Both the position numbers and the translations under genes were made by a program. A DNA stretch of 64,000 nt, from positions 1 through 64,000 of the IMG/VR virus record IMGVR_UViG_3300031552_000002. One strand, 5' to 3'. This DNA is from a virus. Below are positions 10,290 to 46,206 of the stretch, one piece after another. Under the pieces are notes generated by a model. The model had not been told where the DNA came from. It saw nothing but the letters and a program-made list of their open reading frames with translations, and did no database searches. Each line of letters opens with the position of its first letter. Position 1 is the first letter of the stretch.

Positions 10290-10610
10290 TCAGGCGGCGT
10301 CCGCGAGGATCTTGGCGTAGTGCCTCACCCCATCGAAGACGTCGTGGAGGGCGTCCTCGGAGAGGAACGCGTAGTTGATGTCCTCTAGCCTGTCGAAGGT
10401 CTCGTCAATGGCGTCCTGCCATTCCTGCGTGGTGATGGTGTTCGCGGCGATGGCCGCGTCCACGCGCGCTGCCTGCGTGAGCAGGTAGGTCGCGTCCTGG
10501 ATCCAGGAGGCGTGCTCGCGGTCGTTCTCGATTCCGAGCTGGGCGCGGAGGAAGTCCGCTGTCGTCTCGGTGACGGTGGCGGTGGTGGTGATGGTGATGG
10601 TGGCGTTCAT
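10290..10610 (-). CDS. small acidic hypothetical protein (MNAT-start cassette)
   Basis: AGGAGGACACC RBS; promoter at 10655-10683. Confidence 0.7.
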   Translation of the reverse strand: MNATITITTTATVTETTADFLRAQLGIENDREHASWIQDATYLLTQAARVDAAIAANTITTQEWQDAIDETFDRLEDINYAFLSEDALHDVFDGVRHYAKILADAA

Positions 10611-10684
10611 GGTGTCCTCCTGGTGGTGGTGGGGTGAACCTTGCCGACACCTGAATACTGTCAGGTGCGGCGGGCGTTGTCAAC
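10599..10684 (-). repeat. 86-bp perfect inverted repeat, left copy (promoter, RBS, first 4 codons)
   Basis: Exact reverse complement of 11962..12047. Confidence 0.95.
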
Positions 10685-11516: not shown

Positions 11517-11549
11517 TGGCGCAACAGCATTCGAGCCAAGGGAGTCATC

Positions 11550-11933
11550 ATGAGATCGATATGGATGTTCCAGATCGAGCACCTCGTCGCCCCGTACACG
11601 ACCCGCAGCGACGACGGGACGATTGACTGGGGGGAGCCGGACCCCAACTATGTCGCGCTCATGCGGTCGATCATGAGAGGTGGGGCCTTTATCGTCATCT
11701 CCACCGATAAGGTATCGAAGGACAAGGCTCAGGGGCTCCACGGCTGGCTGGACAAGCACCACATCCCGGCGGGCCTTGCAGTCACAAGCAGCAGCACCGA
11801 CAGCCGCGACCACCTCGACCGGGCCAACGAGTGGCTTCGGGAGAACCTCAGCCCCGACGCCAAGGTGCTGGGGGCATTCACCCAGCCCCTTGACGGAGAC
11901 TGGCAGTCAGAGCACCTGGTCATGTATCCGTGA
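11550..11933 (+). CDS. degenerate HAD/PNKP-phosphatase-like protein, paralogue of 16094..16525
   Basis: Near-identical core to 16094..16525; aligns by eye to 32558..32989 but lacks DxD. Confidence 0.6.
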   Translation: MRSIWMFQIEHLVAPYTTRSDDGTIDWGEPDPNYVALMRSIMRGGAFIVISTDKVSKDKAQGLHGWLDKHHIPAGLAVTSSSTDSRDHLDRANEWLRENLSPDAKVLGAFTQPLDGDWQSEHLVMYP

Positions 11934-11961: not shown

Positions 11962-12047
11962 GTTGACAACGCCCGCCGCACCTGACAGTATTCAGGTGTC
12001 GGCAAGGTTCACCCCACCACCACCAGGAGGACACCATGAACGCCACC
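11962..12047 (+). repeat. 86-bp perfect inverted repeat, right copy
   Basis: TTGACA 11963-68, CAGTAT 11986-91, AGGAGG, ATG 12036. Confidence 0.95.
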
Positions 12048-12395
12048 CGCGAGATCTGCAGCTGGAACAACATCGCCACCAGTACGCTCCGGGTCGAGGA
12101 CTGCGTCAGCGACTACCTGTCAGGTGGCGGCGTCGAGTTCGGCGAGCGCTGCTCCGCCACCGGGAGCTATGCCCGGATGGTCGATGGCTACCGGGACGCG
12201 ATCAACGAGGCTTTCCCCGAGGGCATCTCCCTCAACGGGGACGTCGTGTATGGCCCCGCCGACACCGACATCGCGCTTGAGACGCTCCGCGAGATCGTCG
12301 AAGAGATCGACCTCGGCGCGATCGTCGAGCGTCACGACCCCGACCGCCACGGCAACCGCGAGGTCGCCGAGGTCACCGGACGCCACGACCGCTGA
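12036..12395 (+). CDS. acidic hypothetical protein, paralogue of 34197..34508
   Basis: MNATREICSW vs MGATREICNW; YRDAI/YREAL. Confidence 0.7.
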   Translation: MNATREICSWNNIATSTLRVEDCVSDYLSGGGVEFGERCSATGSYARMVDGYRDAINEAFPEGISLNGDVVYGPADTDIALETLREIVEEIDLGAIVERHDPDRHGNREVAEVTGRHDR

Positions 12396-16093: not shown

Positions 16094-16525
16094 TCACATC
16101 ACCTGTAGGTGATCTGCACTTCCAGATCCGTAACTGAACGCCCCTAGCACCTTGGCGCTGGGGTAGAGGTTTTCCCGGAGCCACTCGTTGGCCCGGTCCA
16201 CATGGTCACGACTGTCGGTGTTACTGCTCACGATGGTCAGGCCCGCCGGGATGTGGTGCTTGTCCAGCCAGCCGTGGAGCCCCTGAGCCTTGTCCTTCGA
16301 CACCAGGTCGGTGGAGGCCACGATGAAGGCCCCACCCCTCATGAGCGACCGCATGAGCGCGGCATAGCCAGGATCCGGCTCCCCCCAAGAAATCACCCCA
16401 CCATCACCCAGCACCGGGGCCGGAGCGACAAGGTACTCGATGTCGAACATCCAAGCCGACCGCCTGACTACTCCCTTAGCTCGACGGAGAAGGTACTCGA
16501 TGTCGAACATCCAAACTGACCGCAT
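16094..16525 (-). CDS. degenerate HAD-like protein with duplicated N-terminus
   Basis: WMFDIEYL occurs twice; paralogue of 11550..11933. Confidence 0.65.
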   Translation of the reverse strand: MRSVWMFDIEYLLRRAKGVVRRSAWMFDIEYLVAPAPVLGDGGVISWGEPDPGYAALMRSLMRGGAFIVASTDLVSKDKAQGLHGWLDKHHIPAGLTIVSSNTDSRDHVDRANEWLRENLYPSAKVLGAFSYGSGSADHLQVM

Positions 16526-17765: not shown

Positions 17766-18697
17766 TCAGGGAGAGCAGAGCTCGGGATCGGCGGCTCTCC
17801 GACGCTGCCTGAGGGCCGCCTTGACGTAGTCCGGCACCGGCACGCCCTTGCCGGCGCACTCCGGGCAGCAGATGACACGGTGGGTCGGGTGGTCAGGGCA
17901 CATCGCCTGAGGACCGGGAGCCGGGTGGGCCGCTGTGTGCCGATCTGACGGCCTCAAATCGCGAAGCCATGCCACCACAGCACCACCGTGGCACGAACCC
18001 CAGGACCGGGAACCTACGGCGGCGGAAATGGTCCCTGGGGTCCACCCGTCGGCTATCAGCCGCTCACACTCCCGGATGATGACTCCCCGGTTCAGGGACC
18101 GGCCCACGTCACCGACACCCTCGACAACCGCCTCAGCGAGGAGGGCAGTGGTTCCCCTGTGCCCGGCCTCAGTCGGGTTCTGGGTTGCGGGGTTTCCCGT
18201 TGATCCTTCCACCACCACCGTTGCCTCGTCTTGGGGTGCGGTGGGGCCGGTGGGCTGGGGGGCTTGGGGGGTGGATGGTTCTACGGATGGTTCTAAGGAT
18301 GGTTCGGGGGATGCTGGCATCCTCCCCCCCCCGGATGCTGGCATCCTCCCCCCCCGGATGCTGGCATCCCCCCCTGTTCAGGTGTCCGATGCTGCGACGT
18401 CCCATCGCAGCCGGCCGGACACCGGACGAGGATTTCATACCGGTTCGGACGCTCATGCTCAGCGGTCCGGCGAGTCCCGCCATCGCCCAGGTGAGTCCGG
18501 ATCTCGCCGGCAGTCTCCAGGCGGCGCAGGGCCGCGCGGACGTTCCGGGGATCGACGTTCGCGTACTTGGCCAGCGTCGCGATGGTCGGCCAGGACCCGC
18601 CGTCGCCGTCGTGGTTGGCGATCCCGAGGAGGACGACCTTGTCGGTGCCTCTGGACCGTGAGTGGTGCAGGACGATCGCCAGTGCCTCGACGCTCAT
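17766..18697 (-). CDS. wHTH replication initiator-like protein, split by a 1-nt frameshift in a G tract (ORFs 18293..18697 and 17766..18344)
   Basis: KVVLLGIANH..SWPTIATLA..VRAALRRLE HTH; EPSLEPSVEP linker; one extra G at 18348-55 joins the frames. Confidence 0.7.
18309..18374. repeat. three palindromic iteron-like repeats GGATGC-TG-GCATCC with C tracts
   Basis: Starts 18309, 18333, 18356; C9, C8 and C7 runs. Confidence 0.85.
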
Positions 18698-18783
18698 GCC
18701 GGGCCTCTCCGCCCGGTCTCAGCATCCGACCGGACCGGGAGTGTGCCTCGACCGATCCGGGATGCGCGGGTACTATGGTTCAT
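18694..18783 (-). CDS. 29-aa leader peptide coupled to the initiator gene
   Basis: GGAG RBS; MNHSTRAS..RRGPA*; ATGA overlap with ATG 18697. Confidence 0.5.
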   Translation of the reverse strand: MNHSTRASRIGRGTLPVRSDAETGRRGPA

Positions 18784-18845
18784 GTCAGCTCCGATCTGAC
18801 CATGGCCCGGATCCCCTACCAGGGATGCCGGGCCTCCACTTTTTG
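18782..18845 (+). ncRNA. putative antisense (counter-transcribed) RNA 1
   Basis: TCGACC-N17-TACTAT at 18748-76; hairpin GTCAG/CTGAC with CTCCGAT loop; second hairpin plus T run; homologous to 45323..45390. Confidence 0.6.
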
Positions 18846-19051
18846 TCTTGTGCTGTAACCATACTCTGTGGTCTCGTTCGCTGGCCGCAAGGAACGGCAT
18901 CGAATATCTACAGCTCAGGTCGGGGTCACCTATCACCCCAGGTCCTCGATCTTCACCTGCCCCGACCCGTTGGACAAGGACAAGATCCTCCGTGCGATCG
19001 CTGGCATCGATCCTGCGGCGGTGATCACCGCCTGACACCAGCAACGCACGC

Positions 19052-19090
19052 AGGGAGCCCCCGATCTCGCTATGAGATCAGGGGCTCCCT
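19052..19090. terminator. hairpin
   Basis: AGGGAGCCCC.GATCTC / GAGATC.GGGGCTCCCT. Confidence 0.55.
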
Positions 19091-42762: not shown

Positions 42763-43284
42763 ATGAACGAGGACGCAGCCCGTACAGCGATAACGGTCCT
42801 GTCGCGGGCCCTCAACCAGGACCTAGTCGTCACCGTAGGTGACCGCTGGAATGAGGACCTCGAAGCCCTGAAGATTCTTCTCAGCGACGGCCTCGCCGAG
42901 CTAACCGTCCTTCCCGCCCGTGGCCTCACGGCCTGCCCGACGGCGGCGGGGATCGGCCTTCTTGAGGTCGCCGGCAGGATTCAGCGCGAGGAAACAGCTG
43001 AGGCCCGGATCCGGACGGACTCGCGTATCGCCTCTGCCTACGCGGAGGCGGCTTCGGCGTTACTTGCCAGGACCCCAGTCACACGGCATAGCGCTGTGGA
43101 CGCCGAGGAGCTCGCTTCGCCGCCCGGGTTCAAGGAACAGGGCGGGCCGCCAGATCGGCGCCACGGTCCACCACCAGATCGCGGCGTCCTGCGGGGTGTC
43201 GTGATGTGGGCTGTAGCCGGGCCGGAGGGTGAGGCCATCGCCCAGGCGGCGAGCCAGTTGCCCGAAACAGACACCTGTGATTAA
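42763..43284 (+). CDS. hypothetical protein
   Basis: GAGAGG RBS. Confidence 0.55.
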   Translation: MNEDAARTAITVLSRALNQDLVVTVGDRWNEDLEALKILLSDGLAELTVLPARGLTACPTAAGIGLLEVAGRIQREETAEARIRTDSRIASAYAEAASALLARTPVTRHSAVDAEELASPPGFKEQGGPPDRRHGPPPDRGVLRGVVMWAVAGPEGEAIAQAASQLPETDTCD

Positions 43285-43660: not shown

Positions 43661-44412
43661 AAGACCTTGAGCAGGGTGACCGCTGGTGGTCGCAGCTGTC
43701 GGCTCTCGACACGGAGACGACAGGGGCCAACACGGCTGAGGACCGTATCGTCACCGCCGCCATCACGAGCGCTGGCACCGGGCCGTGCCGCGAGTGGCTC
43801 ATCTATCCGGAAGTCGAGATCCCGGAGAGCGCTACAGCCGTTCACGGGGTTTCCACGGAGCACGCGCAGAAACACGGCTGGGACGCGCGTCTGGTCCTTA
43901 CCGAGATCTCCAGCATGCTCCAAGAGATCACGGAAAGGGGCGTGCCCCTCGTGGTCTTTAATGCGAAATTCGATCTCCCAATACTCACGGCGGAGTTTCA
44001 CCGCCACGGCGTCAATAACGGCGCCTGGCCCGAGATCATTGACCCCCTGGTCATCGACAAGCACGTTGACCAATACCGGGGGGGAAGCCGTAAGCTCGAC
44101 GCTGTCTGCGAGCACTGGGGGGTGGAGCTAGTGAACGCGCATTCCTCAACCGGTGACGCAGAGGCCGCGCTGCTCCTCGCCCAGGCAATGTTTGACCGTG
44201 GAGTCCTCAACAACAGCCTCGTCTATGAGAAGAAAGGCGAAGACGGGGAACTGTGTCTGTTCCAGGTGGATGGATCGTCCAGCAGTCTCCAGGCTGCGCA
44301 AGCGGCCTGGGCAGACCAGCAATCGGACTCTCTCCGGAAGTTCTGGAGAAAGAAAGGCAACCCGCTGTGGAAGACCGTCACCAACGGGTGGCCCTTTCCC
44401 AAGGGGCAATAG
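43657..44412 (+). CDS. DnaQ-like DEDDh 3'-5' exonuclease
   Basis: LDTETTG, VHG, FNAKFD, IDPLVIDK, AHSSTGDA. Confidence 0.9.
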   Translation: MKDLEQGDRWWSQLSALDTETTGANTAEDRIVTAAITSAGTGPCREWLIYPEVEIPESATAVHGVSTEHAQKHGWDARLVLTEISSMLQEITERGVPLVVFNAKFDLPILTAEFHRHGVNNGAWPEIIDPLVIDKHVDQYRGGSRKLDAVCEHWGVELVNAHSSTGDAEAALLLAQAMFDRGVLNNSLVYEKKGEDGELCLFQVDGSSSSLQAAQAAWADQQSDSLRKFWRKKGNPLWKTVTNGWPFPKGQ

Positions 44413-44424
44413 CTGCGATTGTGA

Positions 44425-45324
44425 TCACGCTGCTACCGTTGCCGCGCATTGGCCTCGGAGAAGGTCTCGGATCCTCGCAGCCCCAGCGCTGGGAGCAGGG
44501 GCCTGCTCCGGTATCACCTGCTGCGCTACGGGAATAGTGCCCGCGTACCGGGGGTGGCAGTGGCAGCGTCTCATGCGGCCGTATCCGTCCTCGACGAAAC
44601 CGTGGTCACAGGACCCGCACCACTCCCGGCGGGGAACAGGAAGACGGCACGGGGTGACCTCGCCGAGCCGGTGGAGGAGGACAGCCCGGGGGCTCCGGGC
44701 CCCGTCGAGGGCCCCGCTAAGGGTCTCCTCGGCGGCCCGAAAACCACGCAGGGCGTTCCCGGCGCCGAGGCCACGAAGGATCGGCAGGAGCTCGTCCTCC
44801 TGGACTGGCAGGGACATCCTGGCGAGTCGGCGTCGGACGTCCAGCTCGTCAGGGTCTTCCTCCTGGCGTTCAGTGGGCGCGGGCCCGGCGTGAGGCCAGA
44901 CGACAGCGGGAGGCCCCGGGCGCAGAACCTCGACCGGGCGCCGGACTGCTGTGGGTTCCTCTACGAGCGCGGGGTTCTCGTGGGGCTCCTGGGATGCGTC
45001 CTCGACGTGTTCGGCTGTCTCCGTGGCTCCTGCGGACGGCGCGTAGGTCGTCAGCGTGTACGTGCACCCGACGATCCCGCCGTTCCGGTGCCGCTGCACC
45101 GACGTGACCAGCCCCGAGGCCCTGAGGGCAACCAGGGCCGCCTTGACGGGGCGGAGCGTGAGGCCAGCGCGTTCGGCAATCGCGTGCTGTGAGGGCCAGC
45201 AGGTGCCGTTGCTGTCGGCGAAGGACTCAAGCGCCAGGTACACGCGAACCTCAGCGCCGGTCTTGGTGAGTTCGAGGGCCCGTGCCGCTCTGAGGCGCGG
45301 TCCCGGGCAGGTACACTGTTCCAT
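44425..45324 (-). CDS. wHTH replication initiator-like protein 2
   Basis: VYLAL..FAD..CWPSQ..IAERAGL..V..AL..L; C-terminal WCGSC..RC.CHP; AGGAG RBS. Confidence 0.7.
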   Translation of the reverse strand: MEQCTCPGPRLRAARALELTKTGAEVRVYLALESFADSNGTCWPSQHAIAERAGLTLRPVKAALVALRASGLVTSVQRHRNGGIVGCTYTLTTYAPSAGATETAEHVEDASQEPHENPALVEEPTAVRRPVEVLRPGPPAVVWPHAGPAPTERQEEDPDELDVRRRLARMSLPVQEDELLPILRGLGAGNALRGFRAAEETLSGALDGARSPRAVLLHRLGEVTPCRLPVPRREWCGSCDHGFVEDGYGRMRRCHCHPRYAGTIPVAQQVIPEQAPAPSAGAARIRDLLRGQCAATVAA

Positions 45325-45390
45325 GTCAGCTCCTATCAAGCTGGCCACGGCCCGGACCCCCTCCGCAGGGGTGCCGGGCCTTCTTCTGTC
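45323..45390 (+). ncRNA. putative antisense RNA 2
   Basis: TACACT at 45312-17; hairpins GTCAGCT/AGCTGGC and GGCCCGGACCCC/GGGGT.CCGGGCC then a T-rich tail; covaries with 18782..18845. Confidence 0.6.
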
Positions 45391-45516
45391 GTTGTGGTCC
45401 TGAAGCTATCACCTGCCGCCGCTGTTCCCGTGGAGCACCTCGCCGAGGCCGAGGCTGGGGGGTAGGGGGGTTCTTTCCTTGAAAACCTTCTTTGGAAACC
45501 TTCTGTAGGCTCCACA

Positions 45517-45575
45517 GAGCACTAGGTAGTGCTCCGTGGAGCACTAGGTGGTGCTGGTGGGAGCACCAGGTAGGA
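45517..45575. repeat. three 22-bp-period iteron-like repeats
   Basis: GAGCAC(T/C)AGGT at 45517, 45539, 45561; the first contains palindrome AGCACTA-GG-TAGTGCT. Confidence 0.8.
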
Positions 45576-46206
45576 CGAGGCCGTCCAAGACCTCTGACGG
45601 GTAGGTGGATGACACCGTGCTGGTGCCGTCCCCCCGGGTCACCTGGTAAGAGCCGTGCACAGTCGATGACACCGACCCTGCTGCTTCCATCGCGGCCCTG
45701 ACCATCAGTTCCGGTGACAGCTCTAGCCTGCTGGCCACGGCTAGGGCACCGGAGGCGATGGCCTCAGCGCTGCCGATCGCCACGTAGCCGCAGAACGGGA
45801 CGAGTACCCCGTAGTTGCTCTCGATCAGCGCGCACGAGTCATCGTGCGCGATGACGAGTTGCTCATCGCAGGACGGGAACCCCGGGCCCTGATGGGTGAG
45901 CCCAGCCTCAGCGAATGTTCGCCGGAGGAACGGGACAACGGCTCGCACGACCCAGGTGCAGAATCTCTCGTGGGGGAACCGTTCGGGGAGCTTACTTCCC
46001 GTCCGGACGCTGGACAGGATGAGCTGCGGGGTGAGCGCGATCCCGGCTGTACCCAGGTAGGCGTGAAGGTACGACCCGGTAACGGGAACGGCAACGATCT
46101 TCGGGTTGTCGTACTCGTCGCTGAGTACTGGGTCTGAATACCGGTAGTCCGCTGCGATCGCGGCACTACCACGGCCAGGCCCGGCGGCAGCGATGACCAG
46201 AGTCAT
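45544..46206 (-). CDS. Ntn-hydrolase (HslV/proteasome-beta-like) peptidase
   Basis: MT start, IAAD, KIV, YVAIGS..A.GAL. Confidence 0.65.
   Translation of the reverse strand: MTLVIAAAGPGRGSAAIAADYRYSDPVLSDEYDNPKIVAVPVTGSYLHAYLGTAGIALTPQLILSSVRTGSKLPERFPHERFCTWVVRAVVPFLRRTFAEAGLTHQGPGFPSCDEQLVIAHDDSCALIESNYGVLVPFCGYVAIGSAEAIASGALAVASRLELSPELMVRAAMEAAGSVSSTVHGSYQVTRGDGTSTVSSTYPSEVLDGLVLPGAPTSTT

Follow-up and report, generated by a model that had tools for sequence, protein, structure and literature searches.

A covarying cassette over translation starts in actinobacterial mobile elements, probably encoding cis-antisense RNAs

The virus record IMGVR_UViG_3300031552_000002 of IMG/VR is 75.8 kb long, and its first 64,000 nucleotides (nt) form the 64-kb window analysed here. 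The terminase of the record is about 53% identical to terminases of Streptomyces phages. Two short, similar elements lie on the plus strand of the window, copy 1 at 18771–18850 and copy 2 at 45312–45390, each over the translation start of a minus-strand reading frame. An initial annotation had described copy 2 as a second, covarying version of an antisense element tied to replication initiators. The observation holds up and clearly exceeds chance; the family to which both copies belong is large, strongly covarying and uncatalogued in Rfam. Each copy is probably a compact gene whose product, a cis-encoded antisense RNA some 65–70 nt long, would lie over a Shine–Dalgarno (SD) sequence and start codon.

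The gene beneath copy 2 (gene 2, 44425–45324, minus strand) encodes a 299-residue winged helix-turn-helix (wHTH) protein of the HTH_36 type with a PHROG 'replication initiation O-like' match. Gene callers place the start of its relatives P0004 (90%) and P0005 (47%) at the equivalent ATG; a protein-similarity search found no relatives in viral contigs. Read along the plus strand, copy 2 consists of TACACT, four nucleotides, CAT, hairpin 1, a CAC linker, hairpin 2 and a T-rich tail. TACACT (45312–45317), a -10-like box of the form TANNNT and the predicted antisense promoter, falls inside codons 3–5 of gene 2. The complement of the gene 2 ATG follows at 45322–45324, in the layout TACACT-GTTC-CAT and the start context GGAGCTGACATG, and the antisense RNA is predicted to begin here or 1–2 nt downstream. 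Hairpin 1 (45325–45345) pairs GTCAGCT with AGCTGGC, 7 bp including one U-G pair, around a 7-nt loop. At the junction of its 5' arm and loop stands CTCC, the anti-SD complement of the GGAG of gene 2. Hairpin 2 (45349–45380) is terminator-like, with an outer GGCCCGG/CCGGGCC stem of 7 bp, an inner ACCCC/GGGGT stem of 5 bp and a bulged G at 45373. The tail occupies 45381–45397, and the predicted RNA would end near 45388–45392.

All the parts that the initial annotation had listed for copy 2 are present there and recur at copy 1, at the 26.5-kb spacing it gave. The -10-like box of copy 1, TACTAT (18771–18776), stands in the layout TACTAT-GGTT-CAT, with the start-codon complement at 18781–18783. Hairpin 1 (18784–18800) has a 5-bp GTCAG/CTGAC stem and a CUCCGAU loop that holds the anti-SD. 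Hairpin 2 (18804–18834) has ATCCC/GGGAT as its inner stem and a bulged G at 18827, and the T-rich tail (18835–18850) includes a TTTTT run. Both copies had been said to precede wHTH initiator-like genes. This is right in so far as both neighbours are HTH_36/O-like, but the ATG under copy 1 belongs to a 29-codon leader open reading frame (ORF; 18694–18783, minus strand), whose ribosome-binding site (RBS) and ATG the element covers. The leader stop overlaps, as ATGA, the start (ATG at 18697) of wHTH gene 1 (18293–18697, minus strand), which encodes a 134-residue HTH_36 protein matching phrog_8540, 'replication initiation O-like', at E=1e-29. Short coupled leaders occur also in family members L271 and L290. 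The two wHTH genes match HTH_36 (PF13730), with scores of 34.1 and 37.0 bits against a gathering cut-off of 25, and the second PHROG 'replication initiation' match of the pair is to phrog_391 (2e-10).

Self-BLAST aligns the two copies at 79% identity over a 75-nt block (E=1e-8), whereas the adjacent wHTH proteins are 28% identical over 60 residues; the DNA block is therefore conserved far beyond its surroundings. The 12-mer CATGTCAGCTCC is not significant on its own (two matches, and 11 of 100 shuffles reach two or more). The drawn structures are predicted for both copies on either strand (z-scores -3.2 to -4.2). Their inner hairpin 2 stems differ by the compensatory change that had been claimed, C-G in one and U-A in the other, and their loops differ as well. 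The 12 nt over the start codon and SD, which would be the first 12 nt of both predicted RNAs, are identical. The whole record holds these two copies only. A third self-match, at 73235–73258, was rejected: it lies inside the terminase gene and has no hairpin.

Relatives were sought in several ways. Exact-pattern scans covered viral, genome and metagenome contig collections. They returned mostly chance matches, because an RBS with ATG and a common GC stem are not specific; among the matches listed, to which the metagenome results are confined, the real relatives were only L011, L145 and L188. The element is well kept in L145, where it heads the gene for P0005; in L011 it heads a T5orf172-like gene, and L188 has a partial copy before an XRE-like gene. 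Hairpin 2 alone, not the full element, occurs in L251. Candidates L253, L254 and L256 were discarded, having only the RBS hairpin in common. A second set, of 80 loci encoding relatives of the protein of gene 1 (initiator 1; L013–L092), was gathered by protein similarity alone. A three-copy covariance model found the element in L054 and L013 of this set, antisense and just upstream of the gene. These two loci had been fetched by protein similarity only, so the recovery is independent. A third instance, in L074, was recognized by eye.

A second covariance model, R2, was built from a seven-copy seed that includes both window copies. At E<=1e-4 it has matches in 88 of the 151 Streptomyces genomes sampled, often with several in a single genome, and it matches Kitasatospora as well. 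In a class-wide sample it matches 8 of 151 genomes at E<=1e-6; four of these are absent from the Streptomyces-genus sample, and their loci have 59–72% GC. The window copies, being seed sequences, score 84 and 75 bits, and independent members score 32–55 bits with matching layout. Querying cultured phages by BLAST with the window copies gave nothing useful, and a Streptomyces member was needed as query. With this query the element was found on Streptomyces plasmids, in Streptomyces phage Kromp, over the gene 32 start, and in a group of Gordonia phages, over the start of an HNH endonuclease gene. Gene 32 of Kromp and gene 99 of Asapag, both annotated phages, share the geometry. Rfam gave no match at gathering score anywhere in the window and no relevant match at E<=1 for five loci including both copies; the antisense families checked were ctRNA_pGA1, ctRNA_pND324, ctRNA_pT181, ctRNA_p42d, RNA-OUT, SymR, C4 and sar. 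Literature searches for a described counterpart of the family found no paper.

The homologues bear out the claim of a structured RNA family. In a MAFFT alignment of seven copies 89% of stem cells pair and eight pairs are changed on both sides. The alignment has a covariation score of 0.456, which none of 500 shuffles reaches; slid partners score 0.135 at most. With 39 copies aligned to the model, 96.2% of stem cells pair and double changes are seen in 16 of the 19 pairs, with a covariation score of 0.508 compared with a maximum of 0.079. The bulged G on the 3' side of hairpin 2 is kept in 37 of the 39 members. Both window copies have the family layout: an anti-SD at the stem/loop edge of hairpin 1, a CCA(C/U) linker, a bulged-G hairpin 2 and a T-rich tail.

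The signals that flank the fold are equally constant. TANNNT is present in at least 36 of the 39 members and stands exactly 4 nt before CAT or CAC in 29; both window copies have the family form (G/A)TANNNT at this spacing. In non-homologous ORFs the box occupies codons 3–5, always in the frame xAx-xxT-Axx, and encodes different residues. Protein coding cannot explain it, because it is conserved across unrelated ORFs whose residues differ. In the 8 nt after hairpin 2, 46% of positions are T, against a background of 15%. The hairpin 2 of L251, with its tail in the same orientation, closes an ordinary gene. A further TANNNT is found on the sense strand 10–24 nt beyond hairpin 2 in 18 of the 39 members, where about two would be expected, and in both window copies. 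At copy 2 the candidate is TAGCTT (45403–45408, minus strand), from which the initiator mRNA would start about 15 nt before hairpin 2. The sense and antisense boxes together suggest a face-to-face promoter pair.

The strand on which the fold acts separates the antisense reading from an element of the sense mRNA only. In the latter, the sense-strand counterpart of hairpin 2 (hairpin 2') would end or attenuate upstream transcription and that of hairpin 1 (hairpin 1') would mask the SD and AUG, with no antisense RNA at all. Hairpin 2' does lie 17–24 nt past the stop of an upstream gene of the same strand in L011 and Asapag, and both window copies fold slightly better on the gene strand, where hairpin 1' pairs part of the SD and the AUG. 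Against this, the 39 copies hold 72 G-U cells and two A-C cells on the element strand. A G-U pair there breaks on the gene strand, and the large excess indicates that the fold was selected on the strand opposite the gene. Of the 39 copies, 30 are more stable on the element strand, the mean advantage being 3.7 kcal/mol (p=8e-5). A sense-mRNA element would moreover leave the conserved TANNNT within unrelated coding sequences unexplained, and no U tract follows hairpin 2' on the sense strand. Five signals, namely the G-U excess over A-C, the folding energy, the TANNNT box, the T-rich tail and the orientation of the L251 hairpin, agree in pointing to the antisense plus strand, and we regard the sense-only element as unlikely.

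Several observations weigh against an antisense RNA gene. (i) The two window copies themselves do not follow the family in folding energy, with -36.6 and -30.9 kcal/mol on the gene strand against -34.0 and -27.4 kcal/mol on the element strand, and between them they hold a single G-U pair. The strand call for these two copies therefore rests on box, tail and family membership. (ii) The counts of pairs and boxes are somewhat inflated, because the model guided the alignment of the 39 copies and their selection drew on a model containing the -10 columns. (iii) The tails of some members, for example L145 and L011, are only moderately T-rich. (iv) No conserved -35 box is visible by eye in the 20 nt upstream of the box among family members, as the initial annotation had remarked for copy 2. 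A simple promoter and terminator scanner is silent at both copies; its rules call for a sigma-70 -35 box and at least five T in eight. (v) A KorSA-like GntR gene lies on the element strand 57–104 nt after the element in the Streptomyces loci L266, L271, L273 and L277, and a small ORF follows copy 1. Given these downstream genes, the RNA could double as a leader or attenuator. The KorSA-like neighbours fit conjugative-element settings.

The last point leads to the proposal that the plus-strand signals belong to other transcription altogether, with the hairpin serving as terminator of a convergent gene, or the whole unit as leader or attenuator of a gene that diverges on the element strand. The four KorSA-like loci and the ORF after copy 1 speak for the latter. 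For the former, the end of a plus-strand exonuclease gene, at 44412, is 12 nt away from that of gene 2, and no terminator lies between the two. The ORF screen found no such neighbour at copy 1 and at most family members; the nearest upstream plus-strand ORF at copy 1 that passes the screen for GC at third codon positions (GC3) ends at 12395. This ORF lies about 6 kb away by that crude screen, so a local promoter is the simplest source of plus-strand RNA at copy 1. Neither the fixed spacing from TANNNT to hairpin nor the anti-SD loop would be explained by a terminator or leader of another gene, which makes such an origin very unlikely. The ORF beyond copy 1 itself has 55 codons (18868–19090 region, plus strand, beginning at 18868; GC3 0.76) and starts 18 nt past the tail; a strong hairpin lies after it, near 19052–19090. 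Possibly this is a small divergent gene, served by transcripts that read through the antisense terminator.

The genes headed by the element are diverse. The roughly 40 members examined include three large serine recombinase genes, HNH endonuclease genes, genes with DUF6415 or HATPase_c_2 domains, a T5orf172-like gene and many small ORFans; HTH_36 O-like genes are headed by both window copies and by L145. Some Streptomyces members head small ORFs with N-termini that look hydrophobic by eye, and among the ORFans are some of membrane-like appearance in which a VRPY motif recurs. Eight loci (L277, L280, L291, L300, L302, L305, L306 and L308) share headed ORFs of about 65–215 residues in which the N-terminus is hydrophobic or basic, the middle is rich in Pro and Arg, and the C-terminus has an '(L/A)xVRPY' motif. 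A Pfam scan of two headed ORFs, those of L277 and L258, gave no match. The VRPY-motif ORFs may represent an uncharacterised protein family of Streptomyces mobile elements.

The spread of targets bears directly on the tie to initiators that the initial annotation had drawn. Its proposal amounts to a copy-control countertranscript dedicated to initiators, like the countertranscribed RNAs (ctRNAs) of plasmids, with diverged loops that would make two replicons of the record compatible. It is favoured by the O-like genes under both window copies and L145, by the initiator 1 relatives that the element heads in L013, L054 and L074, by the differing loops, and by the ATGA-coupled leader of copy 1, which parallels tap of plasmid R1. 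Most members, however, head genes not concerned with replication, and 77 of the 80 loci of initiator 1 relatives have no element. The 12 nt over the start codon and SD do not differ between the two copies, and both the initiator role of either gene and the presence of two replicons in the record are presumed. Initiator specificity of the cassette is not supported, because the headed genes are diverse and mostly non-replicative, and a dedicated copy-control RNA appears quite improbable. Homologues without an initiator association were the very finding that the initial annotation had named as telling against itself. They remove its initiator part, and the antisense-RNA part is strengthened on the sequence evidence assembled here.

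Some further features of the initiator 1 relatives deserve mention. The wHTH start is overlapped by 4 nt, as ATGA or GTGA, by the end of an upstream ORF in about 57 of 78 loci, so that translational coupling appears to be usual in this protein family. The overlapping ORF is usually a 55–100-residue Xis/MerR-like HTH gene, and most of these loci are without the element. Many lie on 14–18-kb 'viral' contigs that may be integrative conjugative elements. In L054 and L074 an SD-like GGAGG lies inside hairpin 1', 45 nt upstream of the wHTH start and with no start codon in reach; the wHTH ATG of these two loci has no SD of its own.

From the conserved fold and its flanking signals we infer antisense transcription, the exact ends of the RNA and a repressive effect, along the following lines. 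(i) A minimal -10 promoter (TANNNT, no clear -35) within the first codons of the gene would fire outward, on the plus strand in the window. (ii) The antisense RNA would start at or beside the complement of the start codon. (iii) Its 5' hairpin would present the anti-SD CUCC at the edge of the loop, and a GC-rich hairpin with a bulged G, followed by a U-rich tail, would end it. (iv) The product would be fully complementary to the last 65 nt or so of the mRNA leader, SD and AUG included. (v) Pairing would block ribosome binding, and decay of the mRNA would probably follow, possibly through cleavage. (vi) Synthesis of the gene 2 protein would be held down directly and that of gene 1 indirectly, through the blocked 29-codon leader ORF to which gene 1 is coupled by the ATGA overlap. 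The convergent sense promoter predicted beyond hairpin 2 would make the whole a self-contained, portable module of promoter, leader and antisense brake; the cassette heads many unrelated genes of actinobacterial mobile elements.

A more far-reaching possibility is that such modules form an RNA network among mobile elements, in which the antisense RNA of a resident would silence the cassette-headed genes of an incoming relative, be they for replication, recombination, nucleases or spread. In many copies the 5' part that covers start codon and SD is nearly uniform, and loops and inner stems vary. We hold a network of this kind to be rather doubtful. So is its corollary, exclusion or incompatibility mediated by RNA, in which the variants of loop and inner stem would set the specificity groups and the copies of the window would be insulated or deliberately cross-wired. 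For the two predicted RNAs of the window, cross-talk is at least as plausible as the insulation that the initial annotation had envisaged, since their first 12 nt are identical.

If the RNA is made, the cassette would be among the most widespread cis-antisense regulators in Actinobacteria, occurring in more than half of the sampled Streptomyces genomes. It would supply a portable promoter, leader and brake to genes plausibly harmful when over-expressed, such as those for recombinases, HNH nucleases and initiator-like proteins. Control of Streptomyces mobile elements, so far attributed mainly to Kor-type repressors, would gain a post-transcriptional layer, and Streptomyces engineering a compact regulatory part. 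The cassette may explain common N-terminal codon patterns, for example x-D-L-I and x-N-G-T. Copies are carried by cultured hosts and by the phages Kromp and Asapag.

Upstream of copy 2, on its sense side, lie two 13-bp direct repeats (45475–45500) and three tandem 22-bp repeats with internal dyad symmetry (45509–45574). These repeats, which look like candidate operators or iterons, overlap the end of an ORF at 45544–46206, and three analogous palindromic repeats occupy the matching position upstream of the cassette in L145. Their proximity raises the reading of the element as a double-stranded DNA site, be it an operator, an origin or a recombination or module boundary, recognized by a protein; repeats at the starts of genes in cluster K mycobacteriophages have been interpreted as protein sites (PMC3203893). 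The stems of the element vary freely yet keep pairing, and they use G-U, which is the signature of a folded single strand. A site read as duplex DNA is accordingly extremely unlikely. A likeness of GGCCCGGA to the octamer that TraB recognizes in Streptomyces plasmids was likewise dropped: the octamer is not kept in Streptomyces members, and the stems covary. Elsewhere in the record, long inverted repeats pair 10599–10684 with 11962–12047 (86 bp, 100%) and 11531–11880 with 16135–16484 (350 bp, 80%); a third pair joins the replication and virion regions (43117–43224 and record positions 68445–68552, 108 bp, 95%).

Among known systems, RNA-OUT and SymR come nearest in design. RNA-OUT of IS10 (RF00240) is an antisense RNA of about 70 nt, transcribed from an outward promoter in the 5' end of a mobile-element gene and pairing with RBS and AUG. 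Size, promoter position and pairing target all resemble what is predicted for the cassette. RNA-OUT, however, is one long stem-loop acting on one transposase, whereas the cassette has two hairpins, the second a terminator, and no Rfam match. The other is SymR/SymE of Escherichia coli (RF01809), where a short cis-antisense RNA with its promoter in the first codons of the target covers the translation start. The SymR promoter is embedded in the target ORF, SymR represses translation, and silent mutations of the -10 box have been used for symR (PMC1891008). The cassette differs in having no sequence or model similarity to SymR, in heading many unrelated genes rather than a single toxin-like target, and in belonging to another host phylum. 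Nor does it join the type I toxin–antitoxin systems of the hok/sok kind: the targets in the window are wHTH proteins and not small toxic peptides.

CopA of plasmid R1 acts through translational coupling (PMC5415839). Only copy 1 is comparable to CopA/CopT and tap, which is the nearest known case for that copy, with a short leader ORF under the RNA, a stop that overlaps the initiator-like start (ATGA) and predicted coupling. Copy 2, in contrast, sits on the start of the gene itself, the family extends beyond rep genes, there is no sequence similarity, and control of copy number is presumed only. The OOP RNA of phage lambda, made from promoter pO, is short, antisense and leftward, ends in a hairpin and targets the upstream cII message (PMC3985674, PMC5869508). 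It is similar in position and orientation relative to an O-like gene, and in the lambda sequence the -10 box of pO, CATAAT, overlaps the O start codon. OOP, however, starts beyond the RBS of O, whereas the cassette RNA would cover the RBS and start codon of the initiator-like gene itself. Membership of the OOP type does not fit copy 2: with a tail that extends to about 45397 and an upstream minus-strand ORF whose end is at 45544, the predicted RNA stops about 160 nt short. The 14-nt TCATAATGACTCCT, which comprises start codon, spacer and RBS on the antisense strand, is identical in lambda O/pO (L252, about 375–395) and in L037 (about 2940–2975), a low-GC relative of the wHTH gene; this probably reflects convergence on a strong start context.

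The start-associated sequences (SAS) and extended SAS (ESAS) of cluster K mycobacteriophages are repeats on the RBS, a few bases ahead of the start codons of many unrelated genes, often with an upstream inverted repeat (PMC3203893). They share with the cassette the theme of repeated actinobacteriophage units at the starts of unrelated genes. The ESAS repeats are without covariation and are read as protein sites, whereas the cassette covaries and has antisense promoter and terminator signals; the 13-bp SAS consensus GGGATAGGAGCCC is absent at the start sites of the two copies, which places them outside SAS/ESAS. No earlier description of the cassette family was found, and the family is new in this sense; the predicted type of regulator, a cis-antisense RNA such as SymR, RNA-OUT or CopA, is known. 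What would unite the cassette with these three is a common design, a cis-antisense RNA laid over a translation start.

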